This document shows, one piece after another, positions 3,979 to 57,972 of a stretch of 64,000 nucleotides of DNA (positions are counted from its first letter, which is position 1; every line of letters starts with the position of its first letter). The notes below the pieces were generated by a model. That model did no database searches. It saw only the letters and a list, made by a program, of their open reading frames with translations, and had not been told where the DNA came from. The translations under genes were made by a program, and so were the position numbers. Origin of the DNA: an uncultured Nitrososphaerota archaeon (lineage in GTDB: Archaea > Thermoproteota > Nitrososphaeria > Nitrososphaerales > Gagatemarchaeaceae); assembly GCA_963718895.1 (NCBI GenBank), contig CAVRAG010000008.1, positions 1,472,001-1,536,000 of the forward strand, in the 5' to 3' direction.

Positions 3979-4032
3979 AGATGCCGAAGAAGACAAGTGC
4001 CATGTTAGGCTTCATCGCGCCTCCGTCGGGGA
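3979..4032 (+). repeat. Cassette-boundary repeat with partial long left arm
   Basis: AGATGCCGAAGAAGACAAGTGCCATGTTAGGCTTCATCGCGCCTCCGTCGGGG. Confidence 0.8.
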
Positions 4033-4446
4033 ATGATTCGGTACGGGAATGTACACGGCTTCCCGTCCTAAGGCGTTCTTGATGGTCGAGTCTGTCGTGA
4101 TGAGGATCGGTGCGGTGGCTTCTCTCGTGGCGAGGGCGAAGCAATCTGCGAGCGAAAGTTCTCTCTTCTTGACCTTCCAAAGGGCCGCCTGTCTTGTGAT
4201 CTGCACCTCGGGCGCGACGACCTTAATCCTGGAGCTGCGAACCTGAAGATACCAGACCTCGGCCGTTTCGACCCCCTTCTTCTCGGCAGTCTTGTAGTAG
4301 AACTCGGCGAGATTCACCTCAGAGACGAAACCGCGTGCCTTTCCTGAAAGGACCCTATCAAAGTAGGGCTTCACAGATGTCGCTCCAGCATAGTAAAGGG
4401 AAAGCGCCCCCGCGTCCAGCGCGTAGCTACGCGCGCTCAGACTCAA
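4012..4446 (-). CDS. vapC: VapC PIN-domain toxin (copy 1; copy 2 at 48938)
   Basis: YALDAGAL, EVNLAEF, LSLADCFALA, ITTD; its stop TGA lies inside the repeat core. Confidence 0.88.
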   Translation of the reverse strand: MSLSARSYALDAGALSLYYAGATSVKPYFDRVLSGKARGFVSEVNLAEFYYKTAEKKGVETAEVWYLQVRSSRIKVVAPEVQITRQAALWKVKKRELSLADCFALATREATAPILITTDSTIKNALGREAVYIPVPNHSPTEAR

Positions 4447-4660
4447 CTTCCTTTCTCCGATCCCTCGATATTTCGAGCGCAACCTCCAGCATCTCGTCTC
4501 CTCCTGCCCCAAAACTCTCTTCCATCGAAAGAGAGGGCTCGAGAAGAATTCGTCCTCCTTCATCTCTGATTATCACGGCGCGGCCGATCTTGAACTTCCT
4601 TCTGAGATACGCGGGGATGACCACCTGTCCCTTGGAAGACACGGGAACGACCTTTTCCAT
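4427..4660 (-). CDS. vapB: AbrB/MazE-type antitoxin
   Basis: VSSKGQVVIP..LRRKF; overlaps the PIN gene. Confidence 0.88.
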   Translation of the reverse strand: MEKVVPVSSKGQVVIPAYLRRKFKIGRAVIIRDEGGRILLEPSLSMEESFGAGGDEMLEVALEISRDRRKEVESERA

Positions 4661-4691
4661 GAAATCCGAGAAAGTAGGGCTTGTTTAAGTG

Positions 4692-4733
4692 TTTTACTTC
4701 CGTAGAGTTTTACTTCTAGAGCGATTTTACTTC
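4692..4733. promoter_or_regulatory. Putative TA operator: three direct TTTTACTTC repeats
   Basis: TTTTACTTC at 4692, 4708 and 4725 beside TTTAAG upstream of the antitoxin; largely conserved in copy 2 at ~49618-49658. Confidence 0.55.
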
Positions 4734-4754
4734 CAGAGTCCGGTTCGAGAGGGT

Positions 4755-5273
4755 TCATTGCGCCTGATGATCAGCTAAATTCTGAACTAACTCCCTGGAG
4801 AGCAAACATGTCTGCTCGAGCGTCAAACTCGATATGCTCTTGTCCAAGTCGGGAGACCCCTTCACAGCTGTCTGAAGTTCGAATCGGTCTCCCCCTGTTA
4901 TCACGCTCCAAGAGCTTTCTGGGTTCGAAATTCGTCCATACATGTTTGCGAGGGCGATGAACCTGTTTCTCACCGCACGCGAGTAGGTTTCGTTCTCCAT
5001 CAGCGCCAGGAGTCCGATGCCTGTCTGAGTTGATTCGCAGAGATACTTGAGAGCGGCAATCACGGCAAGGGGCTTCTCTCCCCTGAGGCCGAAACGTGCC
5101 TGCGACGACAGCATCTCGATGAAACGTCTGACATTATCTTCTGCAGCAGCAGGATCCATCCTGAGATCATTCGGACCTGCGCCCTGAACCCGTATCGTCG
5201 TGTTGCATCTGGGGCAGATGAGTTGGGCAGAATAAGCTTTCATTCGCGAGCCGCAGGACGGGCAGAAGTTCAA
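4755..5273 (-). CDS. Zinc-ribbon hypothetical protein
   Basis: FCPSCG..CPRCN N-terminus; stop codon supplied by the repeat core. Confidence 0.65.
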   Translation of the reverse strand: MNFCPSCGSRMKAYSAQLICPRCNTTIRVQGAGPNDLRMDPAAAEDNVRRFIEMLSSQARFGLRGEKPLAVIAALKYLCESTQTGIGLLALMENETYSRAVRNRFIALANMYGRISNPESSWSVITGGDRFELQTAVKGSPDLDKSISSLTLEQTCLLSRELVQNLADHQAQ

Positions 5274-5443
5274 GGGCTTGAATCACTGTCTCCTGCCGTC
5301 CATAAATGATTTTTCTACATGCGCGCGAGACTCAGGGCCTCTAGCCATTTCTTGCTCTTGCACCTCCATAGAAGGTGTTGTGCCCTGCCAGGGTGTTCGT
5401 TGCGCCTCAGCCGCGACTCTTCATCAACGCGGGTTGGAGATGG

Positions 5444-5863
5444 TCAGGCTCCGAGCCACACCGTTTCGGGAAGGGCCTTGAAATGCTCGTCACCCGTGAC
5501 GACTCTCGCCTTGTTCCTCTTTGCCGATGCAAGGACGATTCCATCAAAAAGACTGGGTTTTCTCAGGCCTGAAGAGGAAGCCCTCCTGTCGAGCTTGACG
5601 GTGGCCTTGGCCGCCTCTAGGGCTAGGTCGGCATCGATGCAAACGATCTCTGAAGTCTCGAGTATTGTGGCCAGCCGCTTCCGGACGGTCGACTCGGCTG
5701 CACCTTCGCGAACATACTTCCTCGCCACCTCGGCAAGGACGGTGCCAGGCGTCAGCACATTTTCGGCATCTTCGATGACTCTCTTGGCCCTCTGCCCTGT
5801 CTCACTGCCCAGGAAGACCTCTATCCAGGCATAGGCGTCAACTACGATCTTCGTCACGATCAT
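5444..5863 (-). CDS. vapC: VapC PIN-domain toxin
   Basis: VVDAYAWIE, VLAEV, SLFDGIVLA, VTGDEHF. Confidence 0.9.
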   Translation of the reverse strand: MIVTKIVVDAYAWIEVFLGSETGQRAKRVIEDAENVLTPGTVLAEVARKYVREGAAESTVRKRLATILETSEIVCIDADLALEAAKATVKLDRRASSSGLRKPSLFDGIVLASAKRNKARVVTGDEHFKALPETVWLGA

Positions 5864-6044
5864 CCTCTGTGAAGGGAGTCACCTTTCCGCTGTCCGCGCC
5901 GAACGCCTCCTCGAGGAGCGCCTTGCGGTGCCGCACGACCAGCATTCGTATGGTCTCCTCCAGGGTTCTGGCGTGTATACCCTTCTGCAGCGCTGCCAGC
6001 TCGCGAGCTGTGTCCTTAGAGACTTTTACGGTGGTCGCATCCAT
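5838..6044 (-). CDS. vapB: VapB-type antitoxin (RHH-like)
   Basis: TTVKVSKDTAREL..TLEETIR; overlaps the toxin start. Confidence 0.8.
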   Translation of the reverse strand: MDATTVKVSKDTARELAALQKGIHARTLEETIRMLVVRHRKALLEEAFGADSGKVTPFTEDDRDEDRS

Positions 6045-9544: not shown

Positions 9545-9760
9545 GAGCGCCAACGCACCGTCAGGCGTAGTTAAGACTGCCCTCGGGGCCAACTGCATTC
9601 CCGATGAGCTGTTATTGCGCCTCCGCCGGTCCATTTCATCCATGCGTTGGACAATTCTACACCGGCGATCGTTCTGCATACGGATGCGTCTGGCCGACTT
9701 ATGGGAATGCCGCGTTCAGAGCGAAGAGAGCGAGGAAGGGCGCGGACGTCGCCGCGCCCT

Positions 9761-16020: not shown

Positions 16021-16155
16021 GATTGATAGTTATGTCCGAATGATACTAAACGTAACCTCCAGCCATTGCTCTTGCTAAGATGCCGTAAAGAATGGCAGTG
16101 CCATGCATAAGGGTTCATTGCGCCTCCGCCGGGGATGATTACCCACACGTTCGGC
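16021..16155 (+). repeat. Long-form boundary element (promoter-bearing left arm, core and right arm)
   Basis: GATTGATAGTTATGTCCGAA..AACCTCCAGCCATT..AGATGCCGTAAAGAATGGCAGTGCCATGCATAAGGGTTCATTGCGCCTCCGCCGGGG..CCCACACGTTCGGC. Confidence 0.85.
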
Positions 16156-16244
16156 ACTGTGATGGTGGTCATCGGAAGTCATGGAGTGGACTACGGCGAT
16201 GCTTATAGGCAACAGGTTGTCTCAGTCCCGCCCAGAACCAGCTG

Positions 16245-17597
16245 ATGAAACTCCGAGGTCGCGCCATCGTCCTGATCGTGCTTCTCGTCTTTGTTCCCTT
16301 GACCTCGATACTGACCGCCTCGCCGGCTCATGCCGGAGGACCTTACCCCGCTGCCTGTTACACAAGCGTGCCCCCCTATGGGCACATGTGCATCGTCCTA
16401 GGCCAGCCGGACTTCACCACCGTGACCGCGGGTCAACCCTCCAGTCCCACAACGATCGGCAACCCCACAGCGGTGGCCTTTGACTCCAAGGGAGACCTCT
16501 GGGTAGTCGACAGCAGCAACAATCGGGTCCTGGAGTACGAGCCTCCCTTCACGACCGGAGAAGCAGCCAGCCTGGTGATCGGCCAGACGAGCCTCACCGG
16601 TTCGGGAGACTCCTCGCCAGCAGGGAGCCTGTTCGGCCCCACGGGCATCGCGTTCGACCCGAGCGGCAACCTCTGGGTGGTCGACACCGGTAACAACAGG
16701 GTCCTTGAGTTCAAGACCCCGTTCTCCAACGGGGAATCTGCGTCGCTGGTCATCGGGCAGCCCACCTTCGGCGGCTACATCGGCCAGACGACATCAGGGG
16801 GCCTGAATGCCCCTTCCTACGTCGCCTTTGACCCGAGCGGGAACCTCTGGGTGACCGACCAGGGCAACAACAGGGTCCTCGAGTTCGCCGCCCCGTTCTC
16901 CATCGGCGAGAAAGCATCCGTGGTGATTGGTCACGCAAACTTTACTTCGTTCGCCCCCTCATCGACTGTAACTGCGAAGAGCCTGTTTGAGCCTATCGGA
17001 ATAGCATTCGACTCGAAGGGAGACTTGTGGGTGGCCGACAGTGGGGACGACCGGGTTCTTGAATACACCGCGCCATTCTCAATTGGTGACAGTGCTGCTA
17101 TTGCGGTCATTGGCCAGTCGAGCTTGACCGGAACCTCGACCGGGCTGCATGCCTATGCCATCGCATTCGACTCCGGCGGCAACCTGTGGGTCTCGGACGG
17201 GATCAGCGGAGTCGCGGAGTACGAGGGTCCCGTGTCCACCGGCGAAGCAGGCTATCAGGCGATAGGCCCGACTGTCAATGGCACCGGTACATCGCCTGGC
17301 GACAAGCTGCGCGACCCTCAGGGGATCGCTTTCGACGCGAACGACAACCTGTGGGTCGCGGACTACGACCACGGCAGGGTCGTGGTGTATGGCAGTGCAG
17401 TCATTCGCACGACATCCAGTTCCTCTTCTTCGTCGACCACGTCGACCACGACATCAGGGGGAGGAGTTCCGGAGTTCCCCTATCAATTGGCGGCGGCGGT
17501 TGCCTTCACCGTCCTCATTGCCGCCTCCTACCTATTGGTTCGACGCCGCATGAAGCCATGGACTGATGCAAGTCAAGCGAAGCCAGCACCTAGCTAG
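16245..17597 (+). CDS. Secreted NHL-repeat beta-propeller protein with PEF-CTERM-like anchor
   Basis: Six AFDxxGNLWVxDxxNxRV repeats; C-terminal GGGVPEFP, TM and RRR. Confidence 0.88.
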   Translation: MKLRGRAIVLIVLLVFVPLTSILTASPAHAGGPYPAACYTSVPPYGHMCIVLGQPDFTTVTAGQPSSPTTIGNPTAVAFDSKGDLWVVDSSNNRVLEYEPPFTTGEAASLVIGQTSLTGSGDSSPAGSLFGPTGIAFDPSGNLWVVDTGNNRVLEFKTPFSNGESASLVIGQPTFGGYIGQTTSGGLNAPSYVAFDPSGNLWVTDQGNNRVLEFAAPFSIGEKASVVIGHANFTSFAPSSTVTAKSLFEPIGIAFDSKGDLWVADSGDDRVLEYTAPFSIGDSAAIAVIGQSSLTGTSTGLHAYAIAFDSGGNLWVSDGISGVAEYEGPVSTGEAGYQAIGPTVNGTGTSPGDKLRDPQGIAFDANDNLWVADYDHGRVVVYGSAVIRTTSSSSSSSTTSTTTSGGGVPEFPYQLAAAVAFTVLIAASYLLVRRRMKPWTDASQAKPAPS

Positions 17598-18348: not shown

Positions 18349-18520
18349 CCGTTATCAAGTACCGGGGTACTCCTGTACTATAAAGCATTTGCACGGGGTT
18401 CATCGCACCTCCGCCGGGGCATTTCAAACAACTCAGTGCCGACGGAATTGGATTCGCAGATAGCTACATGAGAAGCGCTCTACGCTGGTCCTTTTTAGTG
18501 GGAGTCACGTCGGAGGGTGT

Positions 18521-18913
18521 ATGTCCGCGTACAAGTTCCCAACCGTCGATGAGATAATCGACGTCAACAGACGAGTGCTGGTAGAGATACCGGTCAAGAG
18601 GGCGGACAGGTATCAGGTCTTGTCTCGCATGAAGTTGCAGCTCATCCTTGATGATGCAAAGAAGACGAACGGGGACGTCTACAATCCCGCGACGGAGCTC
18701 CTGTTCGGAATCGTGAAAGGACATCCTTTTGCAAGTGGCGTTAGGCGGACCGCGGTGACCGTTACGTCAGCATTCTTGAAGTTGAACGGCGCTGGGACGG
18801 AGGTGCCTCACGATCCTGATGTGCTAAAGGGAATCCGTGAGGGTTTTTATAGCAAGATCGAAATCAAAGAATGGCTGAAGGGTCATGGCATCAGAAAGCT
18901 CACAGGTGATTGA
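18521..18913 (+). CDS. Fic/Doc family protein with atypical motif (copy 1)
   Basis: HPFASGVRRTA in place of HPFxDGNKRTA; PTVDEIIDVN N-terminus. Confidence 0.8.
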   Translation: MSAYKFPTVDEIIDVNRRVLVEIPVKRADRYQVLSRMKLQLILDDAKKTNGDVYNPATELLFGIVKGHPFASGVRRTAVTVTSAFLKLNGAGTEVPHDPDVLKGIREGFYSKIEIKEWLKGHGIRKLTGD

Positions 18914-18989
18914 TTCCGAGTTCCTTCGCTACTGTGAAGAGTATATAGCGAAGAACCGGGTATTCCTTCAGCGCGTCGGCAGACTCTGA
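18885..18989 (+). CDS. 34-aa putative antitoxin of the Fic/Doc protein
   Basis: MASESSQVIDSEFLRYCEEYIAKNRVFLQRVGRL overlaps the end of fic; conserved in copy 2. Confidence 0.55.
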   Translation: MASESSQVIDSEFLRYCEEYIAKNRVFLQRVGRL

Positions 18990-19174
18990 GCTCCGACGTC
19001 TCTCGTTAGCGGCTCGAGGGGAAGGATTCTTCTTGAAGTATGGGGTCCATTGCGTCTCCGCCGTGACCTGAAAGGACTCGCCGCTGATTAGATATTCATC
19101 TTTTTGCAAGCTTGCCTTCGAAGGCCCTCTTACGGTCTTGCGATATGGTTAGGGCCTCCACGGATAGGGACATA

Positions 19175-19714: not shown

Positions 19715-19834
19715 GAGCGCGTCAGGGAACGGAAGATATCCCTTTTAAAAGCCATAGAAATTGCGGGTCCCCGCCGAGGCATTTCATCCAGACGTTTGGC
19801 GACTGAAATCCAGTGCTGATAATCGAGTATTCTT

Positions 19835-20305
19835 TCAGCCAGGGTTGGCGCTGGTCCTTGACCTCTTCCGAGTCTCACTCCCCTTTTTCTCGGAGATGTC
19901 GTCGATAGCTTCCACCCAATGGACTCTCTTGAACGCTTGATCGTGCGTCGCTATCCTAACAACCCCAGAAGCCTGCATCGTCGCCAAGATCACACACTCT
20001 CGGCTTCCTAGACCTACAGACGCGTGTTCTGTAATCATCCCAAATGCGGCATCAGCAATCCGGCGGTCCAGATCAAAGATTCTGAGAGTGGCGAGGGTTT
20101 GAATCCTCTCCATCAAGTCTGAGAATTCTTGTTTCGGGAGCATCCTCAGATAATGAGCCACTTCGAATAACGTGACGTAATTTGTGGCGATTCCTTCTTT
20201 AATCGCCTTCCGCATGGTCCTGAGAACACGTTCGTGTTCGGGAAGCCTCGAGTCCAACCAGTAGATCCAGTAGTTAGAGTCGACGTATATCAAACTCGGG
20301 CCCAA
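19835..20305 (-). CDS. vapC: VapC PIN-domain toxin (copy 1; copy 2 at 57185)
   Basis: IYVDSNYWI, LFEVAH, IATHDQAF. Confidence 0.9.
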   Translation of the reverse strand: MGPSLIYVDSNYWIYWLDSRLPEHERVLRTMRKAIKEGIATNYVTLFEVAHYLRMLPKQEFSDLMERIQTLATLRIFDLDRRIADAAFGMITEHASVGLGSRECVILATMQASGVVRIATHDQAFKRVHWVEAIDDISEKKGSETRKRSRTSANPG

Positions 20306-20538
20306 ATCTCCTTTAGCCGCAGCGGGTCGGTCGCCCTCGCCTTGCTCCCTCTCTTCAGGATGCCTTCGGTTTGCTTGATGAAGGCTTCGGGTTCTAGGCT
20401 GGATTTCAACATGATGATGGAACCGCCTCTATCAGCGATGCTAACCCTGACCTTGCTGCCTTCCGCCAGTCCAAGCTCTTTCCGTACCTCGTCAGGAATC
20501 ACTACACGGCCTTTTGAGTCGACGACCGTCTCCGTCAA
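20290..20538 (-). CDS. vapB: AbrB/MazE-type antitoxin
   Basis: VDSKGRVVIPDEVRKELGLAEG. Confidence 0.9.
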   Translation of the reverse strand: MTETVVDSKGRVVIPDEVRKELGLAEGSKVRVSIADRGGSIIMLKSSLEPEAFIKQTEGILKRGSKARATDPLRLKEIWARV

Positions 20539-20574
20539 CTGGTTCCCACTTTGATTCCCACTTTCGCTACTTAA

Positions 20575-20622
20575 GGGTTCGTCGCGCCCCCGCCGGGGCA
20601 GTTCATCCACACGTTGGGCTAT
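20575..20622 (+). repeat. Cassette-boundary repeat
   Basis: GGGTTCGTCGCGCCCCCGCCGGGGCAGTTCATCCACACGTTGGGCTA. Confidence 0.9.
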
Positions 20623-20653
20623 AGTAAGTCGACGCTAAGAGAGGGCTGTGAGA

Positions 20654-27761: not shown

Positions 27762-29045
27762 TCATGCCAGTGGCATGTTAGGCGACCGGGACGAAGATGT
27801 GTGACGCCGGACCAGAAGATAGGATGCCGCCAAGAGAACGGTGAAGAAGGCGGCCACCAGGAACTGGTAGGGGAACACCGGCACTCCCCCTCCCCCGCCT
27901 GTCGAGCTTGTTGCGGAGGTCTGTGCCGTCGTAGAACTCGAGCCCGTGATGCTGTTGGCCGTGGAGGGAGAAGACGAAACGACCGTGGTGGTCGACGTGG
28001 AGCTCAGTGTGGTGGATGTGGTCGAGCTACCCGAGGTCGTTGACGACAGGGCGGCGTCGGGTACCACGGAGATGGTGGAACCGCCACTGTCGGCCACGAA
28101 CACCTCGCCCTTTCCCGAGTCGTAGGCTACGTCGTAGGGTGAGGTCCCTACCGTGACGTTCGCGACGATCTTGTCACTGCTGTCGGACACCGCTGAAATC
28201 GTGTTTGACATGTAGTTCCCTGCGACTACATCGCCCTTGGCAGAGTCGTAGACTACTTCTCCGACGCTGCCTCCTGCAGGTAAGATCACGGTCGCGACGA
28301 CCGCGTTGCTTGCGTCGGATATCACCGAGAACCCGTCGCCAAAATTGTCCGCGAACACTTCATCCTTTGCGGGGTCGTAGACCAGGCCCGTGGGGGAACC
28401 ATAGAGGACCACGTTGGCGACAACTTTGTTCGTGGAGTCGGAGACCACGGAGACATTGTCAGCTCCGTTATCCGCAACGAACACCTCGCCCTTGGCGGAA
28501 TCATAAGCCAGGCCCTCGGGGGAGCTTCCGGAGGGAAGGGTTACAGTCGCGACGACCGTGTTTGTGCCGTCGGAGATGACGGAGAGGGTGTCATCGAGAC
28601 CATTCGCCACGAACACTTCGCCCTTTGCAGAGTCATATGCCAAGCCGTCGGGAGTACCTCCAACATTCACGTTCGCCACGACCTTGTTCGTGGAGTCTGA
28701 TATCACGGAAACGGCGGCGTTGCCGCTGTCGGCGACGAAGATCTCGCCCTTTCCTGAGTCGTAGACGGCGCCCAGGGGAGAGCTTCCAGCGGGTAGGCTG
28801 AAGTTCGCGACGACGATGTCGGTGGTGTCGGATATCACAGAGCCCCTTGGGCCCAGATCCGCAACGAATATCTCGCCCTTGCCTGAGTCGTAGGCCAAGC
28901 TCTGGGGGGTACCCGTTACGGTTATGGTCGTCACAGCGGCCCCGGCCCTGGCGAAAGGAACGGCGACGGCCGAACCTAGGACCAAGAGGACCAGGAGAAT
29001 CATAGCAGACGTCATGCGGATGAACCCGTGACGCGAAGCCGACAC
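27762..29045 (-). CDS. Secreted YVTN/YncE-type beta-propeller protein with PEF-CTERM-like anchor
   Basis: Seven AYDSxKGExFVA..VSVISD..VVA repeats; GGGGVPVFP, TM and RRH; start approximate. Confidence 0.88.
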   Translation of the reverse strand: MSASRHGFIRMTSAMILLVLLVLGSAVAVPFARAGAAVTTITVTGTPQSLAYDSGKGEIFVADLGPRGSVISDTTDIVVANFSLPAGSSPLGAVYDSGKGEIFVADSGNAAVSVISDSTNKVVANVNVGGTPDGLAYDSAKGEVFVANGLDDTLSVISDGTNTVVATVTLPSGSSPEGLAYDSAKGEVFVADNGADNVSVVSDSTNKVVANVVLYGSPTGLVYDPAKDEVFADNFGDGFSVISDASNAVVATVILPAGGSVGEVVYDSAKGDVVAGNYMSNTISAVSDSSDKIVANVTVGTSPYDVAYDSGKGEVFVADSGGSTISVVPDAALSSTTSGSSTTSTTLSSTSTTTVVSSSPSTANSITGSSSTTAQTSATSSTGGGGGVPVFPYQFLVAAFFTVLLAASYLLVRRHTSSSRSPNMPLA

Positions 29046-29124
29046 GCTCTCGACTACGTTGCCGGTAGGCGCTCGATTTAAGACTTCGGAACTGCAATTC
29101 CAGAAGAATAATCCTCTTCGCGCA

Positions 29125-29170
29125 TGGGTTCGTTGCGCTTCCGACGGTCCTTTCATCCACATGTTGGCTA
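29125..29170 (+). repeat. Cassette-boundary repeat
   Basis: GGGTTCGTTGCGCTTCCGACGGTCCTTTCATCCACATGTTGGCTA. Confidence 0.85.
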
Positions 29171-34234: not shown

Positions 34235-34282
34235 GGGGTTCATCGCGCCTCCGCCGGGGCATCTCATCCACACGTTGGGCTA
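34235..34282 (+). repeat. Cassette-boundary repeat
   Basis: GGGGTTCATCGCGCCTCCGCCGGGGCATCTCATCCACACGTTGGGCTA. Confidence 0.92.
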
Positions 34283-34344
34283 TGGGCGACGCGCGCGAAC
34301 GAATCAGGCCAGCCAGATGTTCGAGTTCTTCCCTTCATGCCTGC

Positions 34345-34704
34345 TTAGGTCGCTTCAATCCGGATTTCTCTTTCCGTGACGACAATCAGCGCGTTGGGGT
34401 GCTTGGTGATGTCAGCGCGAGCAAGGAGACGTTCGATGCACTCCTGGACTCTAGTGGGCGTCGGAGGATGCGACCTAATGATGATGACCCCGAACGTCGT
34501 CTTGAGTTGGTGGTGCAGACGAATGAAGTCTTGGTCCAACGAGATAACCATCCTGCCTTCGCGGTGAGCGTATCGCGCGATTGCGACGTCAGTCGCGCCA
34601 GGGTGGAGCGCTTCGATCGTTCCTTTGGTGTCGTGACCCTGCCGCTTCAGCCAACTCCTGACGCTCGAGGGAACGTTCTCGTCTGTAAGGAATCGTAGAG
34701 TCAC
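34345..34704 (-). CDS. DUF5615 PIN-like toxin (copy 1)
   Basis: RFLTDENV..GHD..ATD..ISLDQDF. Confidence 0.85.
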   Translation of the reverse strand: MTLRFLTDENVPSSVRSWLKRQGHDTKGTIEALHPGATDVAIARYAHREGRMVISLDQDFIRLHHQLKTTFGVIIIRSHPPTPTRVQECIERLLARADITKHPNALIVVTEREIRIEAT

Positions 34705-34949
34705 TGTGCCTCAAGTTCTATGACTTCTTCGTCACGCAGCCTCTTTGAGGCGTATTCGAGAGCGGCCCGAATGTCCTCGACCGTTAGGTCTGGGTACTCC
34801 TTCAGTATCCCCTCCTCGGTGATTCCTGAAGCCAGGAGTTCCACTATCAAGTAAACTGCTATTCTAGTCCCCTTGATTACGGGCTTTCCACCCAACACCC
34901 CCCTGTTCGTGCTGATTCTGCCAAGCCTGCTTCTCAATCTGGATTGCAA
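34701..34949 (-). CDS. DUF433 antitoxin (copy 1)
   Basis: GGKPVIKGTRI..EYPDLTVEDIRAALEYA. Confidence 0.92.
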   Translation of the reverse strand: MQSRLRSRLGRISTNRGVLGGKPVIKGTRIAVYLIVELLASGITEEGILKEYPDLTVEDIRAALEYASKRLRDEEVIELEAQ

Positions 34950-35202
34950 GAAGGCTCGCTTCTATAAAAAGTAGGCCGACGACCGATTCAAGGATGAGCC
35001 ATGGTTAGGGTTCATTGCGCCTCCGCCGGGGCATTTCATCCATTTGGTGGATGTGGTATGGGAACTGGTTGACACTACCTGCGATCATTCTTCCAGTACC
35101 GTTTCGTTTGGCAGGAATGAATGACTTAGCCACTCCGTAGGTACCGTTGAGAATCGGTACTCTCTCATATTCGTGAGTCAGCCGTCAGGACCGCGGAGCC
35201 AA

Positions 35203-37012: not shown

Positions 37013-38011
37013 TCAGGGAACGCCGCACGAGCTTAAGCATCCCGCAACCACCGTCCTAGAGACCCGGGTCCCGTAGAAGCCATTCGTGGTGGCCATGAAC
37101 GTTACCGTATACCGGTTTCCAGGGACTATCGAGATGTGCCCTGGCGCGTTTGCTTTCATCCCGATTGCGTACGATACGCTGTACTGGGAGGGCGAAGCGC
37201 CAGAATGACCAACCCCGACGGAGCCGATATAGGTTCCGTTGATGAGGACATCCACCTCGGAGATCTGGCTGGTCGTGTTGAAGACGAGGACCGCGGACAG
37301 GACCGGATTGACCGAAGAGAGCACGACACTCCTTATCGATATGAGGTCGGTCGGAGAGATGCCTGTGCTGAGCTGGCCCGAGTAAATCGACTCCTTCAGG
37401 CTTGAGCCATCACTGGCTATGACCGTGATTCCTACGCCGCCTTGTGGAATGAAGTAGACGCCCGAACCGCCTGTGAACGTGACAGAGACATTCGCCGCCT
37501 TGCCCGGCTGAAGCATGGCGCTCGGAGTAACTGTGAATCCCACCGTCGTTGCAGTTGGGCCGGTCATGGTGTCGTTCGACGGTACCCAGCCCATGGCGTT
37601 GATGCAGGTTGCGACGATGGAGACGGGTGAACTCCCTGTGTTCTTGATTCCCGTTAGTACGCCCGAGTAGCTGAGGCTGTTCTCGCCGCCGCCGAAGGCC
37701 AGACCAGCCGCCTCGTTGCTGCCGCCACCTGTCGCGATGTTTGATATGTTACTGCAGAACCTCGAGACGAATGTTCCACTCACCGCGTAGGTCGCAAGTT
37801 GCGGGGACTTTGAAGGGTTTGTCGCGGTCGTAGCGACGGTGGTGGTCGTTGTTGTAATCGTAGACGTCTCAGTCGTCGTCTTGAACGCTGTCGATGTCAC
37901 GGTCTTCGACGCTTGCCCAGTGGCTACGAACAGGCTCGCGGAGATTAGCACGCCGGCTATGACGATTGCTGCAGCAATGACGAGATAGCTCCGAGCCGGC
38001 GGAGAACTCAA
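37013..38011 (-). CDS. Membrane-anchored Thr-rich surface protein
   Basis: N-terminal AIVIAGVLISASLF anchor shared with 39620..40273. Confidence 0.75.
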   Translation of the reverse strand: MSSPPARSYLVIAAAIVIAGVLISASLFVATGQASKTVTSTAFKTTTETSTITTTTTTVATTATNPSKSPQLATYAVSGTFVSRFCSNISNIATGGGSNEAAGLAFGGGENSLSYSGVLTGIKNTGSSPVSIVATCINAMGWVPSNDTMTGPTATTVGFTVTPSAMLQPGKAANVSVTFTGGSGVYFIPQGGVGITVIASDGSSLKESIYSGQLSTGISPTDLISIRSVVLSSVNPVLSAVLVFNTTSQISEVDVLINGTYIGSVGVGHSGASPSQYSVSYAIGMKANAPGHISIVPGNRYTVTFMATTNGFYGTRVSRTVVAGCLSSCGVP

Positions 38012-39619: not shown

Positions 39620-40273
39620 TCATACTGGTTCGGGCCAAAGGAGCTCGTTTCCTCGGGAGGGGTTCGTCGCGCCTCCGCCAGGGAAGATCGACCCGTGCGC
39701 CAGACAGTTCTCGTTGTAGTAGCATACATAGGTGGTGACGTGCCCTGATGAGATGTCAAAGGTCACGTAGATGCTGGCAATGGGCGACGTCGAGACCGAC
39801 AGGCTGTAGTTGAAACCCGCATGGCTGACGACCAAATCGTAGTATCCGAAATCGCCGTCGAGCATGCTCGCCCATCCGCTCGAGTTAGTTGTGACAGGCG
39901 GCAGATTTGAGACCTGCAGGTAGTCGTTACAGTATCCTTGCGCCTGGCCGCTCACCCTAGCGCCCGGGACAGGAGTCGTCCCGTTCACCACGTGAATTAC
40001 CGCTCCGATGGTTGGGCCGGAGACGGTACACTGGACGTTCGTGTACACGGTATTCGTGAACGTCTGCGTTGCCACTGTTTTGATGGAGGTTACAGTCGTC
40101 GTTGTGGTCACAGTCTCCGCGGACACTGTGTTGGTGGTTCCCTGTCCCGAAGTCAGTGTCACGGTCTTGGTCTCTTGCCCAATGGCGAAGAACAGGCTCG
40201 CGGATATTAGCACCCCGGCTATGACGATTGCTGAAGCAATCGCAAAGTAGCTCCGGTTAGCCTGGCCGCTCAA
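39620..40273 (-). CDS. Membrane-anchored Thr-rich surface protein
   Basis: Same anchor as 37013..38011; the ORF reads through the repeat at 39660-39683. Confidence 0.7.
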   Translation of the reverse strand: MSGQANRSYFAIASAIVIAGVLISASLFFAIGQETKTVTLTSGQGTTNTVSAETVTTTTTVTSIKTVATQTFTNTVYTNVQCTVSGPTIGAVIHVVNGTTPVPGARVSGQAQGYCNDYLQVSNLPPVTTNSSGWASMLDGDFGYYDLVVSHAGFNYSLSVSTSPIASIYVTFDISSGHVTTYVCYYNENCLAHGSIFPGGGATNPSRGNELLWPEPV

Positions 40274-40304: not shown

Positions 40305-40414
40305 TCTGATTAATAGTTTTGTCCGAACGGAACCTCTAGCCGTTTGCCTAATTCAAGATGCCGTAAAGAAAGGCAGTGCCATGTATAGGGTTCATTGCGC
40401 CTCCGCTGGGGCAT
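40305..40414 (+). repeat. Long-form boundary element
   Basis: TGATTAATAGTTTTGTCCGAACGGAACCTCTAGCC..AGATGCCGTAAAGAAAGGCAGTGCCATGTATAGGGTTCATTGCGCCTCCGCTGGGGCAT. Confidence 0.9.
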
Positions 40415-48864: not shown

Positions 48865-48937
48865 TGCTTCGCGTTAACATTCGGCCGAGATATATCGCTT
48901 TCCAGCTTCAGAAGAGAGCTTTCGCCATGCATAGGGT

Positions 48938-49372
48938 TCATTGCGCCTCCGCCGGGGAATGCTTCGGTATGGGTATGTACACGGCTTCCCGTCCTAGGGC
49001 GTCCTTGATGGTCGAGCCGGTCGTGATGAGTATCGGTGCGGTGGCTTCTCTCGTGGCGAGGGCAAAGCAATCTGCGAGCGAAAGTTCTCTCTTCCTGACC
49101 TTCCAAACGGCCGCCTGTCTTGTGATCTGCTCGTCGGGCGCGACGACCTTAATCCTGGAGCTGCGAACCTGAAGATACCAGACCTCGGCCGTTTCGACCC
49201 CCTTCTTCTCGGCGGTCTTGCAGTAGAACTCGGCGAGGTTCACCTCGGAGACGAAGCCACGTGCCTTTCCTGAAAGGACCCTGTCAAAGTAGGGCTTCAC
49301 AGACGCCGCCCCGGCATAGTAAAGGGAAAGCACCCCCGCGTCCAGCGCGTAGCTACGCGCGCTCAGACTCAA
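48938..49372 (-). CDS. vapC: VapC PIN-domain toxin (copy 2 of 4012)
   Basis: Near-identical to 4012..4446; ITTG replaces ITTD. Confidence 0.88.
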   Translation of the reverse strand: MSLSARSYALDAGVLSLYYAGAASVKPYFDRVLSGKARGFVSEVNLAEFYCKTAEKKGVETAEVWYLQVRSSRIKVVAPDEQITRQAAVWKVRKRELSLADCFALATREATAPILITTGSTIKDALGREAVYIPIPKHSPAEAQ

Positions 49373-49586
49373 CTTCCTTTCTCCGGTCTCTCGATATCCC
49401 GAGGGCGACCTCCAGCATCTCGTCTCCTCCTGCCCCAAAGCTATCTTCCATCGAGCGGGAGGGCTCGAGAAGAATTCGTCCTCCCTCATCTCTGATTATC
49501 ACGGAGCGGCCGATCTTGAACTTCTTTCTGAGAGGCGCTGGGATGACTACCTGTCCCTTGGAAGACACGGGAACGACCTTTTCCAT
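49353..49586 (-). CDS. vapB: AbrB/MazE-type antitoxin (copy 2)
   Basis: Near-identical to 4427..4660. Confidence 0.88.
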   Translation of the reverse strand: MEKVVPVSSKGQVVIPAPLRKKFKIGRSVIIRDEGGRILLEPSRSMEDSFGAGGDEMLEVALGISRDRRKEVESERA

Positions 49587-49897
49587 GAAATCCGAGAAAG
49601 TAGCACTTGTTTAAGTGTCTTACTTCCGTAGAGTTTTACTTCTAGAGCGATTTACTTCCTGGGTTCGGTTCGAGAGGGTTCATCGTGCCTCCGCCGATTG
49701 CATCCACACATTGGGCTATAGTGAGTCGACCGGGACAGGGAGCGTTCACTAGCGAGTCGACCCTCCACGGTCCGCGATTCCGCGACTATAGCAGATTCAA
49801 GATAACAGCGAGAGGCGAGCCGAAGTTCGCATCTTTCTTCTTGAACCTGCGCGGCGAACAGATCGACGCGAGGACATGAAACCCTTAAGATAGAATC

Positions 49898-51014: not shown

Positions 51015-51196
51015 GACGGTGACGGCCGCCTGGGCTTCGCTGATAGTGTGCTTATGGAAGTGTAACATGCGCATGGTTCATCGTGCCTCCGCCGGGGCAT
51101 TTCAAACGGCTGAGCGCCGACGGAATTGGATTCCCAGATAGGTACGTTAGAACATCTCTGCGCTGGTCCTTTTTAGCGTGAATCACGTCGAAGGGT

Positions 51197-51589
51197 ATGT
51201 CCGGGTACAAGTTCCCAACCGTGGATGAGATGATCGAGGTCAACAGACGAGTGCTGGCAGAGATACCGGTCAAGAGGGCGGACAGGCATCAGGTCTTGTC
51301 TCGCATGAAGTTGCAGCTTATCCTTGATGATGCAAAGAAGACGAACGGGGACGTCTACAATCCCGCGACGGAGCTCCTGTTCGGAATCGTGAAAGGACAT
51401 CCTTTTGCAAGCGGCGTCAGGCGGACCGCGGTGACCGTCACCTCAGCGTTCCTGGAGTTGAACGGCGCCGGGACAGAGGTGCCACACGATCCTGATGTGC
51501 TAAAAGGGATCCGTGAGGGTTTTTATAGCAAGAGCGAGATCAAAGAATGGCTGAAGGGTCATGGCATCAGAAAGCTCCCAGGTGATTGA
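51197..51589 (+). CDS. Fic/Doc family protein with atypical motif (copy 2)
   Basis: Near-identical to 18521..18913. Confidence 0.8.
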   Translation: MSGYKFPTVDEMIEVNRRVLAEIPVKRADRHQVLSRMKLQLILDDAKKTNGDVYNPATELLFGIVKGHPFASGVRRTAVTVTSAFLELNGAGTEVPHDPDVLKGIREGFYSKSEIKEWLKGHGIRKLPGD

Positions 51590-51665
51590 TTCCGAGTTCC
51601 TTCGCTACTGTGAAGAGTATATAGCGAAGAACCGCGAGTTCCTTCAGCGCGTCGGCAGACTCTGA
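51561..51665 (+). CDS. 34-aa putative antitoxin (copy 2)
   Basis: MASESSQVIDSEFLRYCEEYIAKNREFLQRVGRL. Confidence 0.55.
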   Translation: MASESSQVIDSEFLRYCEEYIAKNREFLQRVGRL

Positions 51666-51748
51666 GCCCCGGTGTCTCGTTAGCGACGCGAGGGGAGGGA
51701 CTCTTCCTGAAGTATGGGGTTCATTGTGCCTCCGCTGGAGCATCAGAG

Positions 51749-56294: not shown

Positions 56295-56373
56295 GAGATG
56301 CCGTAAGAAGGCAAGTGCCATGCACAGGGTTCATTGCGCCTCCGCCGGTCCATTTCATCCACACGATGGGCTA
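56295..56373 (+). repeat. Long-form boundary element
   Basis: GAGATGCCGTAAGAAGGCAAGTGCCATGCACAGGGTTCATTGCGCCTCCGCCGGTCCATTTCATCCACACGATGGGCTA. Confidence 0.92.
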
Positions 56374-56444
56374 CGGGCGACACGGGCGACGCACGCGAAC
56401 GAATCAGGCCAGCCAGACGTTCGAGTTCTTCCCTTCATGCCTGC

Positions 56445-56804
56445 TTAGGTCGCTTCAATTCGGATTTCTCTTTCCGTGACGACAATCAGCGCGTTGGGGT
56501 GCTTGGTGATGTCAACGCGAGCAAGGAGACGTTCGATGCACTCCTGGACTCAGTGGGCGTCGGAGGATGCGACCTAATGATGATGACCCCGAACGTCGTC
56601 TTGAGTTGGTGGTGCAGACGAATGAAGATCTTGGTCCAACGAGATAACCATCCTGCCTTCGCGGTGAGCGTATCTCGCGATTGCGACGTCGGTCGCGCCA
56701 GGGTGGAGCGCTTCGATCGTTCCTTTGGTGTCGTGACCCTGCCGCTTCAGCCAACTCCTGACGCTCGAGGGAACGTTCTCGTCTGTAAGGAATCGTAGAG
56801 TCAC
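56445..56804 (-). pseudogene. DUF5615 PIN-like toxin (copy 2) with +1/-1 indels
   Basis: Near-identical to 34345..34704 except for indels at ~56628 and ~56551. Confidence 0.8.
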
Positions 56805-57049
56805 TGTGCCTCAAGTTCTATGACTTCTTCGTCACGCAGCCTCTTTGAGGCGTATTCGAGAGCGGCCCGAATGTCCTCGACCGTTAGGTATGGGTACTCC
56901 TTCAGTATCCCCTCCTCGGTGATTCCTGAAGCCAGGAGTTCCACTATCAAGTAAACTGCTATTCTAGTCCCCTTGATTACGGGCTTTCCACCCAACACCC
57001 CCCTGTTCGTGCTGATTCTGCCAAGCCTGCTTCTCAATCTGGATTGCAA
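56801..57049 (-). CDS. DUF433 antitoxin (copy 2)
   Basis: One amino-acid difference from 34701..34949. Confidence 0.92.
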   Translation of the reverse strand: MQSRLRSRLGRISTNRGVLGGKPVIKGTRIAVYLIVELLASGITEEGILKEYPYLTVEDIRAALEYASKRLRDEEVIELEAQ

Positions 57050-57184
57050 GAAGGCTCGCTTCTATAAAAAGTAGGCCGACGACCTATTCAAGGATGAGCC
57101 ATGGTTAGGGTTCATCGTGCCTCGCCGGGGCATTTCATCCACGTCGGGCGATTGAGATACAAATGCTGATGAACAGTGCTCTTT

Positions 57185-57655
57185 TCAGCCGGGGTTGGCG
57201 CTGGCCCTTGACATCTTCCGGGTCTCACTCCCTTTGCCCGCGGAGATGTCGTCGATTGCTTCCACCCAAGGGACCCTCCTGAACGCTTGATCGTGCGTCG
57301 CTATCCTGACAACCCCAGAAGCCTGCATCGTCGCCAATATCACGCAGTCTCGACTTCCCAGCCCCGTGGACGCGTGCTCCAAGATCATCCCAAGTGCGGC
57401 ATCCGCAATCCGGTGGTCCAGATCAAAGATTCTGAGCGTTGCGAGGCTTTGAATCCTCTCCATCAGGTCTGAGAATTCTTGTTTCGGGAGCATCCTCAGA
57501 TAATGAGCCACCTCGAATAACGTGATGTAGTTTGTGATAATTCCCTCTTTGATCGCCTTCCGCATGGTCCTGAGAACGCGCTCGTGTTCCGGAAGCCTCG
57601 AGTCCAACCAGTAGATCCAGTAGTTCGAATCGACGTAGATCAAACTCGGGCCCAA
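57185..57655 (-). CDS. vapC: VapC PIN-domain toxin (copy 2 of 19835)
   Basis: Close paralog of 19835..20305. Confidence 0.9.
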   Translation of the reverse strand: MGPSLIYVDSNYWIYWLDSRLPEHERVLRTMRKAIKEGIITNYITLFEVAHYLRMLPKQEFSDLMERIQSLATLRIFDLDHRIADAALGMILEHASTGLGSRDCVILATMQASGVVRIATHDQAFRRVPWVEAIDDISAGKGSETRKMSRASANPG

Positions 57656-57888
57656 ATCTCCTTCAGCCGCAGCGGGTCGGTCGCCCTTGCCTTGCTCCCT
57701 CTCTTCAGGGTGCCTTCGGTTTGCTTGATGAAGGCTTCGGCGTCTAGGGTGGATTTCAACACGATGATGGAACCGCCTCTATCAGCGATGCTGACCCTGA
57801 CCTTGCTGCCTTCCGCCAGCCCGAGCTCTTTCCGTACCTCGTCAGGAATCACTACAGGGCCTTTTGAGTCAACGACGGTCTCCGTCAA
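57640..57888 (-). CDS. vapB: AbrB/MazE-type antitoxin (copy 2)
   Basis: Close paralog of 20290..20538. Confidence 0.88.
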   Translation of the reverse strand: MTETVVDSKGPVVIPDEVRKELGLAEGSKVRVSIADRGGSIIVLKSTLDAEAFIKQTEGTLKRGSKARATDPLRLKEIWARV

Positions 57889-57925
57889 CTGGTTCCCACT
57901 TTGATTCCCACTTTCACTACTTAAA

Positions 57926-57972
57926 GGTTCGTTGCGCCTCCGCCGGGGCATTTAATCCACACGTTGGGCTAT
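57926..57972 (+). repeat. Cassette-boundary repeat
   Basis: GGTTCGTTGCGCCTCCGCCGGGGCATTTAATCCACACGTTGGGCTA. Confidence 0.92.

Follow-up and report, generated by a model that had tools for sequence, protein, structure and literature searches.

Archaeal integrons have been reported by Ghaly et al. (2022). In the parts of that report drawn on here (PMC9668308), sedentary chromosomal integrons and clusters of attC sites lacking an integrase (CALINs) are long arrays of co-oriented sites about 1 kb apart, with small cassettes that hold many toxin-antitoxin pairs and accessory enzymes. Most of each site lies at the cassette 3' end, exchange takes place near one site edge, and cassettes turn over fast between close relatives while the anchor stays fixed. 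The array described below, from an uncultured soil archaeon of the Nitrososphaerota, resembles them in all these respects. Unlike them, it is anchored on an rRNA operon and is devoid of IntI, the attC hairpin and R''/R' symmetry. Its site is the 3' end of the host 23S rRNA plus one strand of the pre-rRNA processing stem, and it co-evolves with the rRNA flank. The end of the rRNA operon stands in for attI, which in integrons lies beside the integrase gene. Many of the cassettes also appear to carry their own promoters, and some are inverted.

Tyrosine-integrase elements that target the 3' ends of tRNA and tmRNA genes and stack in tandem, including integrated elements of Thaumarchaeota, offer a second comparison (sections of PMC6563490). 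As in those elements, direct repeats copying the 3' part of an RNA gene flank every insert, tandem inserts would result from repeated single-site insertion, and large inserts of 19-27 kb in the genomes G000 and G218 have a tyrosine integrase gene at one end. The target differs, being the trailer of the 23S rRNA gene, and the roughly 84 inserts are mostly 0.4-2 kb long and lack an integrase. Since the crossover lies outside the mature RNA, the insert's copy of the RNA gene is not needed to rebuild the gene, unlike in the tRNA and tmRNA cases. Full-text literature searches found no published report of the 23S rRNA trailer as an integration target.

The pdif modules of Acinetobacter plasmids are moved by XerC/XerD between 28-bp imperfect palindromes in alternating orientation. 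They, too, are small, often toxin-antitoxin modules that are bounded by a short host recombination site, change contexts and depend on a recombinase encoded elsewhere. In contrast to pdif sites, the array sites are asymmetric, co-oriented and derived from rRNA. Archaeal pre-rRNA processing stems have bulge-helix-bulge motifs (PMC7038931, PMC7714728), and the native leader and trailer of this 23S gene likewise form a long stem, in which a 4-bp helix sits between two 3-nt bulges. The trailer strand of such stems is not known to recur, as it does here about 100 times, at the borders of gene cassettes.

An array behind the 23S rRNA gene

The window, i.e., the whole stretch of 64,000 nt that was analysed, is the middle portion of a single row of cassettes that covers about 130 kb and has about 84 junctions (C8:1437144-1567973). 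The array starts 27 nt past the 3' terminus of the only 23S rRNA gene in the genome and follows the rRNA sense: the last core lies at C8:1567973 and the Rfam LSU model ends at C8:1568000. Rfam matches place the LSU rRNA at L127:16000-18000 and L128:1-2001 and the SSU rRNA at L128:2203-3702, all on the minus strand. The terminal residues of the 23S alignment (ending in GUCGACUACCUAUAGCCCAACGUGUGGAUGAA) are the right-hand module of the repeat. On the plus strand the core reads GGGTTCATTGCGCCTCCGCC, which is GGCGGAGGCGCAATGAACCC in the rRNA sense (minus strand); with up to five mismatches, this 20-mer occurs 60 times between 219 and 63653, always on the plus strand and at a mean spacing of about 1.07 kb. 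The 14-mer of the original prediction has 67 matches in the window at up to three mismatches, 63 of them on the plus strand (100 shuffles: mean 6.2, maximum 16). The predicted repeat is real and non-random; its origin in the 23S 3' end and the processing-stem strand, and its anchoring on the rRNA operon, had been overlooked.

Each junction is a partial copy of the operon 3' end, with 0-88 nt of the 23S terminus, a 24-nt core and 0-75 nt of the native downstream flank. A 240-nt native query gave 71 matches, 70 of which include the core; the remaining one is a 17-nt match at chance level. The 23S-derived arm is longest at 57925-58032 (plus strand), where 88 nt matching the 23S 3' end accompany the core. 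Between 56 and 75 nt of the native downstream flank are kept at nine junctions, and at 40331-40411 (plus strand) 57 nt of it (GATGCCGTAAAGAAAGGCAGTGCCATGTATA and beyond) lie left of the core. The homology to the native site has a sharp left edge, at -2 to +1 in 41 of the 70 copies and at -1 to +1 in 184 of 390 pooled copies, and a gradual right edge. At 9608-9627 (plus strand) it begins only at core position 6 (ATTGCGCC), as it does at 2681, at 61464 and, outside the window, at w89161.

The same layout was found at base level in three relatives with assembled 23S genes, G156 (core 203872, 23S from 203899), in G168 (core 182928, 23S from 182958) and in G218 (23S end 36130, first core 36138, about 55 cores beyond). 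In two further relatives, G144 and G036, a site with a long 23S-like arm occupies the equivalent position, 1.2-1.7 kb past the reported end of the Rfam match. The core is present in 31 of 40 genomes of one Nitrososphaerales family (f1), as against 2 of 160 from the other families of the order, each with a single match. In nine genomes from nine other families, no repeat of the genome's own 23S trailer was detected downstream (20 kb in eight cases, 4.2 kb in one); the positive control gave four matches.

The cassettes carry toxin-antitoxin pairs and assorted accessory enzymes, with genes in either orientation (of 29 Pfam-supported open reading frames, 6 are on the plus strand). They recur in new contexts, both within the genome and across species, and homology always ends at the core. 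Between G000 (84 junctions) and its congener G144 (42), just seven cassettes are common, in partly scrambled order.

Duplicated cassettes and the point of exchange

The four cassette duplications that had been predicted in the window all proved genuine, with 90-97% identity that ends at the repeat on both sides and with unrelated neighbours. When 200-nt flanks were included, alignment fell to noise beyond the repeats in all four pairs. The short cassette-specific strings quoted in the prediction are present in the sequence, and its gene names agree with Pfam: PIN with a MazE/AbrB-type antitoxin, DUF433 with DUF5615, and, below the cut-off, Fic/DOC.

The first cassette is of the VapBC type. Copy A (4008-4765, minus strand) contains a PIN gene at 4012-4563 and an antitoxin gene at 4427-4660, the latter preceded by three GAAGTAAAA direct repeats; just 15 nt of core are left at its right-hand site (4751-4765). 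Copy B (48934-49695, minus strand) has other neighbours on both sides, and the two are 92.6% identical over 768 nt (3999-4765 and 48924-49690). The second cassette (18396-19062 and 51074-51736, both plus strand) has a Fic/DOC-like open reading frame at 18521-18913 of copy A, on the plus strand and hence against the array sense, whose Pfam match scores 22 bits at a cut-off of 24. Its copies share 91.4% identity over 665 nt (18397-19061 and 51075-51735).

As for the third cassette, also VapBC by Pfam, copy A (19756-20594, minus strand) encodes a PIN protein at 19835-20305 and an antitoxin at 20290-20610, and at its left site (about 19756-19790) the core has decayed and carries a deletion. Copy B (57108-57944, minus strand) is 89.9% identical over 868 nt (19769-20633 and 57120-57984). 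The fourth cassette combines DUF433 (34701-34949) and DUF5615/PIN-like (34345-34704) genes in copy A (34236-35031, minus strand). Copy B (56327-57131, minus strand) matches it at 96.6% over 817 nt (34236-35042 and 56327-57141), the bodies being about 99% identical. Copy B of the fourth cassette (56327-57108) directly abuts copy B of the third (57108-57925), whereas 14 kb separate the two copies A; the neighbours thus differ.

The junctions are hybrids, as the original prediction held. Across the genome and its relatives, the left flank alone is common to 52 pairs of sites and the right flank alone to 87, so the exchange must sit within the shared core. Where short, low-depth metagenome contigs depart from the window sequence, they do so precisely at a core's left edge, with loose ends at 48924, 58782 and 60634. 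Cassette-specific sequence extends to about -1 on the left; on the right it can set in from position 15, for instance GGGTTCATTGCGCCT followed by GATGA at 4751. In the proposed linkage analysis, minor alleles at core positions 7-19 went with the right-hand cassette, with concordance in 10 of 98 informative cells of right-shared pairs and in none of 107 of left-shared pairs (Fisher p=0.0005, the cells not being independent). The sharp left edge and these right-linked alleles together put the exchange zone at about -1 to +7. Exchange inside the predicted 14-mer is hence upheld for its left half, the GGGTTCA end of the core, a narrower zone than was claimed. A G^TT cut between positions 2 and 3 falls inside this zone and is compatible with the data, which do not favour it over the rest of the zone.

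The processing stem and a site-specific reading

The bulge-helix-bulge stem at which the pre-23S rRNA is processed has core positions 0-23 as its trailer strand. The stem consists of a 10-bp helix, a 4-bp GCGC helix between 3-nt bulges (the bulge-helix-bulge) and a distal helix; the hand-drawn 3-4-3 structure has -52.7 kcal/mol, against a minimum free energy of -52.8 kcal/mol. Compensatory changes were found in G036 (leader GUGUUC, trailer GAACAC) and G168 (GCCGUG and CGCGGC). The leader strand occurs once in the genome. Variation within the core is greatest at positions 6 and 8, the outer bulge nucleotides. A second conservation shoulder at -10/-11 marks the end of the distal helix, and many cassettes begin with the 10 nt that complete this helix.

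The best reading of the locus, for which the chances seem about even, is an integron-like, site-specific cassette platform with an rRNA-trailer att site. Cassettes would move as units by conservative recombination between cores, with exchange at about -1 to +7. The role of the integron attI would fall to the native site that follows the 23S gene, and that of attC to the core plus 23S-like arm at the cassette 3' end. Exchange at the outer edge of the stem would spare the 23S gene and its cleavage motif, which would account both for the tolerance of the site and for the many cassettes that begin with the 10 nt completing the distal helix. Cassettes would thus be exchanged much as in a bacterial integron, yet without any known integron part.

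Searches for IntI, an attC hairpin and a serine recombinase found none. The likeliest enzyme is a tyrosine recombinase that would act in trans, as suggested by a family of tyrosine integrases of about 460 aa. Its genes lie 0.25-4.5 kb upstream of a core, in fixed orientation, at 5 of the 15 loci examined, two of these five being arrays away from the rRNA locus; the crude probability of at least five such loci arising by chance is 0.007. The other ten loci have no core nearby, four of them having less than 2.5 kb of downstream flank. Against a site-specific system, no recombinase was found within or adjoining the main array, and the candidate integrase is absent at E<=1e-10 from G144, a one-contig chromosome with 42 junctions. 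The dyad symmetry usual for core sites of tyrosine recombinases is absent from the core, judged by eye.

Homologous recombination, RNA function and other alternatives

Ordinary homologous recombination and gene conversion between copies of 25-150 nt of the rRNA-operon end, with no dedicated enzyme, would be the main alternative, possible but on balance doubtful. Circles would leave between two repeats and re-enter elsewhere, or incoming DNA would enter by two crossovers. As the sole segment common to all copies, the core would be homogenised and only look conserved. Indeed, arms, core variants and the 10-nt flank match each genome's own rRNA flank, the pattern expected from gene conversion, and in 24 junctions ascertained by their 23S-like arm, conservation of the core does not exceed that of the arm (0.151 and 0.143 differences per site). 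Arm lengths vary continuously, and the variable-length copies of both native arms on cassettes are left unexplained by a core-confined crossover. Even the linked core positions are concordant in just those 10 of 98 cells. In the fourth cassette pair, of about 16 differences 8 fall in the first 70 nt after the core (the 23S-like module), a 9-nt indel among them, and this arm is far more diverged than the 99% identical body; a recurrent GGTCC variant points the same way, as do the lack of a recombinase at the main array and that of the candidate integrase in G144. This mechanism predicts breakpoints along the whole repeat, whereas the left edge is sharp, the core is present in 70 of 70 real copies with no arm-only copy, and positions 7-19 segregate with a single side. 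Moreover, the sequence common to a junction and its partners is in many cases just 15-24 nt, a short stretch for homologous exchange, and the integrase family lies near cores more often than the crude chance estimate allows. One junction (16111-16157, plus strand) has a 23S-like arm, GGGGATGATTACCCACACGTTCGGC, that is another lineage's 23S-end variant (GGGGATAATCACCC type), unlike that of its own genome. Cores decay only weakly as the 23S gene becomes more distant (rho 0.23, p=0.03, n=83), a trend that is absent in G144 and G156.

A function in RNA seems unlikely. Each copy would be half of a bulge-helix-bulge site that pairs with the one 23S leader, or with some hypothetical guide, and splicing endonuclease and ligase would cut and join cassette transcripts or read-through pre-rRNA; the borders, and even mobility, would follow. 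The conserved block is the very part of the trailer that pairs with the leader (10-bp helix, 4-bp helix, bulge and distal helix), the shoulder and the two variable positions fit this structure, and pairing with the leader is far stronger for junction copies than for random 70-mers (mean -52 against -37 kcal/mol). Such a function is hard to reconcile with one leader strand for about 100 trailer copies and with cassette genes on both strands. The commonest border is the end of a 6-bp helix, 6-8 nt from the bulge where cleavage is expected, and frequent variants at positions 10, 16 and 18 would, from the sequence read by eye, break pairs. In at least one cassette, the repeats upstream of the antitoxin gene resemble its own operator.

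That the locus is an ordinary integron or a CALIN, as published for archaeal genomes (in the parts of PMC9668308 cited above), is highly improbable. The spacing and co-orientation of the sites, the small, toxin-antitoxin-rich cassettes and their high turnover between relatives would all be accommodated, but the genome's best score for the integron integrase model TIGR02249 is 33.8 bits at a cut-off of 265, and the site copies the host rRNA flank. Single-stranded folding was no better than in shuffles at 10 of 10 junctions (z +0.06 to +1.14). By eye, inverse-core/core inverted repeats are missing: RYYYAAC is present in the form GCCCAAC, but a matching GTTRRRY is absent from the same strand.

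An assembly artefact, in which strain variants collapsed or chimerically joined at the repeat would produce the duplicates and the mosaic order, can hardly be the explanation, even for a metagenome bin that is 80.5% complete with 5.4% contamination and whose array on contig C4 may come from a second strain, since the same architecture is found in the independent assemblies G156, G168 and G218 (base level) and G144 and G036 (equivalent position), the duplicates differ by 3-10% with their own flanks, and the array sits on a 1.6-Mb contig that has the rRNA operon in position.

A repeat array anchored at the 23S rRNA gene

The repeat bordering the cassettes is clearly non-random. The 14-mer singled out by the original prediction occurs 67 times in the window with up to three mismatches, 63 of these on the + strand, whereas 100 shuffled versions averaged 6.2 and never exceeded 16. 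A 20-nt core, GGGTTCATTGCGCCTCCGCC, is found 60 times with up to five mismatches, about once per 1.07 kb. Integrons and CALINs are recognised by two or more sites in the same orientation, spaced by less than 4 kb and with short ORFs between them, and the window holds 60 sites in 64 kb arranged in this way. In the genome bin (3.13 Mb in 11 contigs, 80.5% complete, 5.4% contamination), contig C8, on which the window occupies 1472001-1536000, carries 78 cores with up to four mismatches on the + strand between 1.19 and 1.57 Mb, densely from 1.44 Mb. Contig C4 has 18 cores in both orientations at the same threshold, and the rest of the genome almost none. About 4% of the genome is taken up by the array, along which core decay gives a weak age gradient. 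Known RNA families and tRNAs were not found within the window.

The repeat is largely confined to relatives of the host. An exact 19-mer scan with one genome per species returned at least 110 matching stretches. Among the 80 listed matches, 73 were metagenome bins of archaea, under the labels Nitrososphaerales, Nitrososphaerota, Thaumarchaeota or plain "archaeon" and including Candidatus Gagatemarchaeum; the other seven came from bacteria, with two matches in one record and one in each of the remaining six. Of 201 genomes sampled across the order, 31 of the 40 in the window's family carried the core (two mismatches allowed); among 160 genomes from 19 other families, two had it, with one copy each. 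Copy numbers within the window's genus were 64, 43, 34, 21, 2 and 0.

The origin of the repeat became apparent at the end of the array. Homology to many relatives begins exactly at the last core (C8:1567973) and runs for 6 kb without long ORFs. According to Rfam, this stretch is the 16S-23S operon on the minus strand, with 27 nt between the 3' end of the 23S model (C8:1568000) and the beginning of the last core. The final aligned 23S residues, ..GUCGACUACCUAUAGCCCAACGUGUGGAUGAA, are the common right-hand module of the repeat (CATTTCATCCACACGTTGGGCTATAGTAAGTCGAC on the + strand), and the core follows directly after the 23S end, as its 3' trailer. In this the repeats resemble those of integrative elements that target RNA gene ends, where flanking direct repeats copy the 3' part of the target: the right arm aligns to the last 0–88 nt of the 23S gene (length from a separate extension method).

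The same anchoring is seen in relatives. The last core lies at 203872 and the 23S gene starts at 203899 in G156; the corresponding positions are 182928 and 182958 in G168. In G218, the 23S gene ends at 36130 and the first core follows at 36138, with about 55 cores over 100 kb. G144, which is congeneric, and G036 have a site with a long 23S-like arm in the equivalent position, 1.2–1.7 kb past the end of the reported Rfam match, which suggests further inserts near the 23S 3' end in both. Of nine genomes from nine other families, none repeated its own 23S end or trailer downstream (20 kb of downstream DNA in eight, 4.2 kb in one); the genome under study, as a control, gave four matches. As for the 23S gene itself, it contains an insert of about 1 kb in this host (L127:16000-18000, equal to C8:1568000-1570000 and outside the window) that partly matches the group I intron family RF00028 at 26 bits, below the gathering score. 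In G168, the 23S match stretches over 6.7 kb.

The complementary strand of the core sits in the spacer upstream of the 23S 5' end, i.e., in the leader. Leader and trailer can pair in an inner helix of 10 bp (UCCGCCGGGG/CCCCGGCGGA, with one extra 1-nt bulge), followed by a leader bulge AAG, a 4-bp helix GCGC/GCGC and a trailer bulge AAU; beyond these, a distal helix GGGUUC/GAACCC extends over a further 12 positions as far as GCCAUG. A bulge-helix-bulge is characterised by a pair of 3-nt bulges, one on either strand, with 4 bp between them. Drawn by hand pairing, the leader-trailer structure has practically the same energy as the minimum free energy fold (-52.7 vs -52.8 kcal/mol). In a comparison with three other genomes, compensatory changes were found in G036 (leader GUGUUC with trailer GAACAC) and G168 (GCCGUG/CGCGGC vs GCCAUG/CAUGGC in the window's genome), and these support the predicted bulge-helix-bulge stem. 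Core positions 0–23 are the trailer strand of this predicted pre-23S processing stem, since the leader carries the complement, the pairing folds, and relatives show compensatory changes.

In the rRNA sense, the core also reads GGAGG, five nucleotides, ATG, and at 58783-58802 (minus strand), for instance, it forms a perfect ribosome-binding site with a start codon; ATGA within the core can act as a stop/start overlap. A role as translation start was rejected because the ATG rarely opens a cassette's real ORF, and the start-like motif looks like a by-product of the stem sequence.

Cassette boundaries and the exchange zone

Four cassette duplications had been read from the sequence, and all are real, with 92.6%, 91.4%, 89.9% and 96.6% identity over 665–868 nt. 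When the pairs were aligned with 200-nt flanks, homology stopped at the repeats in all four. Soil-metagenome contigs on the window, from four runs, were only 150–450 nt long at a depth of 2–4. Their joints link core to core with 23–32-nt sides, and they part from the window exactly at the left core edges 48924, 58782 and 60634. Cassettes of this genome also recur in other species at 68–95% identity among unrelated neighbours, with homology stopping at the cores; they move as units with breakpoints at the sites, as the cassettes of integrons and CALINs do. Only seven cassettes are common to this genome (84 junctions) and the congeneric G144 (42), in partly scrambled order, while the rRNA operon beside the array is collinear between the two.

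The anatomy of the junctions was derived from a 240-nt query centred on the native site, the core directly behind the single 23S gene. Across contigs C8, C4 and C7 (2.87 of 3.13 Mb), it gave 71 matches elsewhere, of which 70 contain the core and the remaining one is a chance-level match of 17 nt. On the right side, into the 23S gene, native homology fades gradually and ends between +14 and +78. On the left side, it stops abruptly, and 41 of the 70 copies start at -2 to +1. A second left shoulder at -10/-11 corresponds to the end of the distal helix, and nine junctions retain 56–75 nt of native downstream flank with a T-rich stretch. Given the sharp left edge and the gradual right edge of native homology, a cassette in the rRNA sense consists of a short or absent native-like start, a body, a 23S-like arm of variable length, and the core.

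When 390 junctions from all genomes of the analysis were pooled and anchored on core positions 7–19, the same pattern emerged. The left edge falls at -1 to +1 in 184 junctions, at -3 to +1 in 235, and at -10 or beyond in 78. A further 45 have it at +2 to +7, some of these being chance anchors. In nine of the 390, homology begins precisely at +6, three of them in the genome under study (w9608, w61464 and w89161, in window coordinates that may run past the window's end), and w2681, found only through its 23S-like arm, has the same edge. It may be conjectured that the +6 class marks the second edge of a 6–7-bp overlap.

The proposal that junctions are hybrids of two cassettes is supported. Among 464 distinct sites, leaving out pairs of two native sites, 52 pairs share the left flank only and 87 the right flank only. 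Right-hand cassette-specific sequence may begin at position 15 or 16 (w4751; C8+1535633/L032; L032/L064, L marking extracted DNA pieces), which, together with the left edge, places a common exchange point within about -1 to +15. The linkage check suggested at the outset narrows this interval. At positions 7–19, non-consensus bases were shared in 10 of 98 informative cells of right-shared pairs vs none of 107 of left-shared pairs (Fisher p=0.0005, the cells not being independent events); at positions 0–6, the counts were two of 26 and two of 56 (p=0.59). Because positions 7–19 segregate with the right side and the left edge is sharp, the exchange zone would lie at about -1 to +7. The original prediction of an exchange inside the core is retained in a narrower form. 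The G^TT cut considered compatible with it falls inside the zone, and nothing singles it out.

Candidate enzyme and competing readings

No recombinase was found inside the main arrays, nor among 20 ORFs scanned near the 23S-proximal end and in an 18.7-kb array gap, which gave a TIG-domain giant protein, a double-GTPase, a HerA-like ATPase, an esterase and a zf-AN1 protein. The genome encodes four tyrosine recombinases (Pfam), and the 80.5% complete assembly contains no serine recombinase (PF00239). Two of the four, adjacent and divergently oriented, are found 1.4–3 kb away from a stray core (C8:1189536), in the terminal part of a 26.7-kb segment (C8:1189536-1216205) flanked by two co-oriented cores. 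The first, a protein of 461 aa encoded at C8:1190965-1192347, is an integrase according to PHROGs and distantly XerA/XerC-like in PDB. Homologues occur in 40 of 61 family genomes (E<=1e-10). Among the best 15 homologue loci (E<=1e-79), five have a core 0.25–4.5 kb downstream of the integrase gene in the same relative orientation (crude binomial estimate p=0.007), and four of the ten core-negative loci have less than 2.5 kb of downstream flank. All five core-adjoining loci belong to the window's genus: the one described here, G224:C25, G218:C3, G215:C98 (core with four mismatches) and G224:C7. In G218:C3, the integrase is located between a + array and a - array, off the rRNA locus. The 461-aa tyrosine integrase is thus a candidate enzyme for cassette exchange, judged by its position and homology. 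Against it stand the array-bearing G144, which has no matching protein (E<=1e-10), and the main arrays without a recombinase; its gene is neither in the approximately 80 small cassettes nor in the main array.

Secondary arrays off the rRNA operon are present at C8:1189536-1222526 and C4:263568-302703. The C4 array has cores in both orientations and cassettes in common with the C8 arrays at 85–90% identity; C4 might represent a second strain in the bin. In L163 (G224:C25) and L167 (G215:C98), the integrase-adjoining cores at 2473 and 8159 are followed by GATTTAACATCCC, which looks like the reverse complement of the 23S leader and not like the 3' end of the 23S gene, as would result from recombination of leader with trailer. 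Furthermore, L164 and L177 (G218:C3:292070-340133) contain a + array, an integrase-bearing 19-kb segment and a - array. Next to the core nearest the integrase lies a sequence that is found again in the opposite array as ggat[t/c]agtaccaaagggccggagaa, and this points to an inversion between cores.

Integrons, the textbook example of gene capture, are defined by IntI together with folded attC sites. The locus resembles them in its dozens of small cassettes, in the exchange at sites, and in the near-complete turnover between congeneric species. It differs in that the attachment site is the trailer of the host's 23S rRNA and the anchor is the single rRNA operon. An ordinary integron was rejected for lack of IntI, attC hairpin and R''/R' symmetry. 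The best score for IntI (TIGR02249) in the 3.13-Mb genome (80.5% complete) was 33.8 bits against a cut-off of 265, and the two integrases beside the stray core scored about 21 bits or less. Ten of ten junctions (110 nt) folded no better than 200 shuffles each (z +0.06 to +1.14), and reading the consensus revealed neither R''/R' symmetry nor an inverted pair of cores.

The findings fit an integron-like cassette platform. The native site behind the 23S gene would serve as entry point, and each cassette would carry, at its 3' end, a core together with a decaying 23S-end copy. By taking place at the stem's outer edge, exchange would spare the 23S gene and the predicted cleavage motif, making the core a safe, invariant target comparable to the tRNA gene ends used by other archaeal elements. 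It would also favour cassettes starting with the 10 nt that complete the distal helix.

In the main rival reading, gene conversion or homologous recombination between the repeats plays a large part. This reading draws on the two native-like arms, whose origin the platform reading leaves unexplained, on the host-specific arm sequence, and on the low concordance even at those core positions that are linked to the right flank. Moreover, the idea that the core is better conserved than the arms was dropped, as it is no better conserved than the arm when junctions are found by the arm. Much less probable, indeed hardly to be expected, is a mechanistic coupling of cassette capture to rRNA maturation, in which recognition of the core would involve RNA, either as the recognised form or as an intermediary, and the core would be more than a safe target in DNA. 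The pre-23S leader, or an RNA resembling it, could guide a recombinase or transposase; in another version, a splicing endonuclease and a ligase could act on read-through transcripts that are then copied back into DNA. If so, an rRNA processing stem would double as attachment site, and archaeal gene capture of this kind would be unrelated to integrons. An RNA-level role for the roughly 100 half-sites has little support; the native leader is the only leader-type strand in the genome that could give a cassette its own bulge-helix-bulge.

Should a dedicated recombinase be confirmed for the integron-like platform, it would be a second, independently evolved cassette platform and the first tied to an rRNA gene, in a group of abundant, uncultured soil archaea. 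Surveys based on attC and IntI would miss such arrays. Integrons have been reported in 75 archaeal genomes (PMC9668308). Apart from the genome lists of that paper, full-text searches gave no report of arrays of this kind or of an rRNA-trailer att site, and the text consulted from the Gagatemarchaeaceae genome paper (PMC10640624) has no mention of integron, cassette, toxin, repeat or mobile. The locus raises the questions of how the cell copes with about 100 decoys of an rRNA processing signal and whether selection for intact rRNA maturation shapes which cassettes sit first.

Cassette cargo

Pfam matches were obtained for 29 of the 40 ORFs scanned in the window, 23 on the minus strand (the rRNA sense) and six on the plus strand. 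Toxin-antitoxin types account for 15 of the 29: eight PIN or PIN-like, four MazE/AbrB, one DUF433 and two Fic/DOC. The gene names assigned in the original prediction agree with Pfam; the weak point is the Fic match at 18521-18913, whose 22 bits fall below the cut-off of 24. In at least one cassette, the antitoxin gene is preceded by three direct repeats that resemble an operator of the cassette's own. Other cargo includes an FAD oxidoreductase, a short-chain dehydrogenase, NHL-repeat proteins, a GNAT protein, a nucleotide cyclase, a methyltransferase, a PNPOx-like protein, an M50 peptidase, an ABC-2 permease and a LigT-like protein. The latter, a 2'-5' RNA ligase (LigT)-superfamily protein of the RNA-end-healing type, is encoded by the cassette at 62391-63083 (minus), and the occurrence of such an enzyme within an array bounded by RNA-processing signals may be a coincidence. 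The NHL-repeat beta-propeller proteins at 16245-17597 (+) and 27762-29162 (-) also lie in cassettes and have internal tandem DNA repeats with periods of about 126–258 nt. Two paralogous proteins with a pilin-like hydrophobic N-terminus and no Pfam match are encoded at 39620-40273 and 37013-38011, both on the minus strand. Their upstream regions share a long native-like flank, and one of the two reads through a core (..FPGGGATNP..) before its stop.
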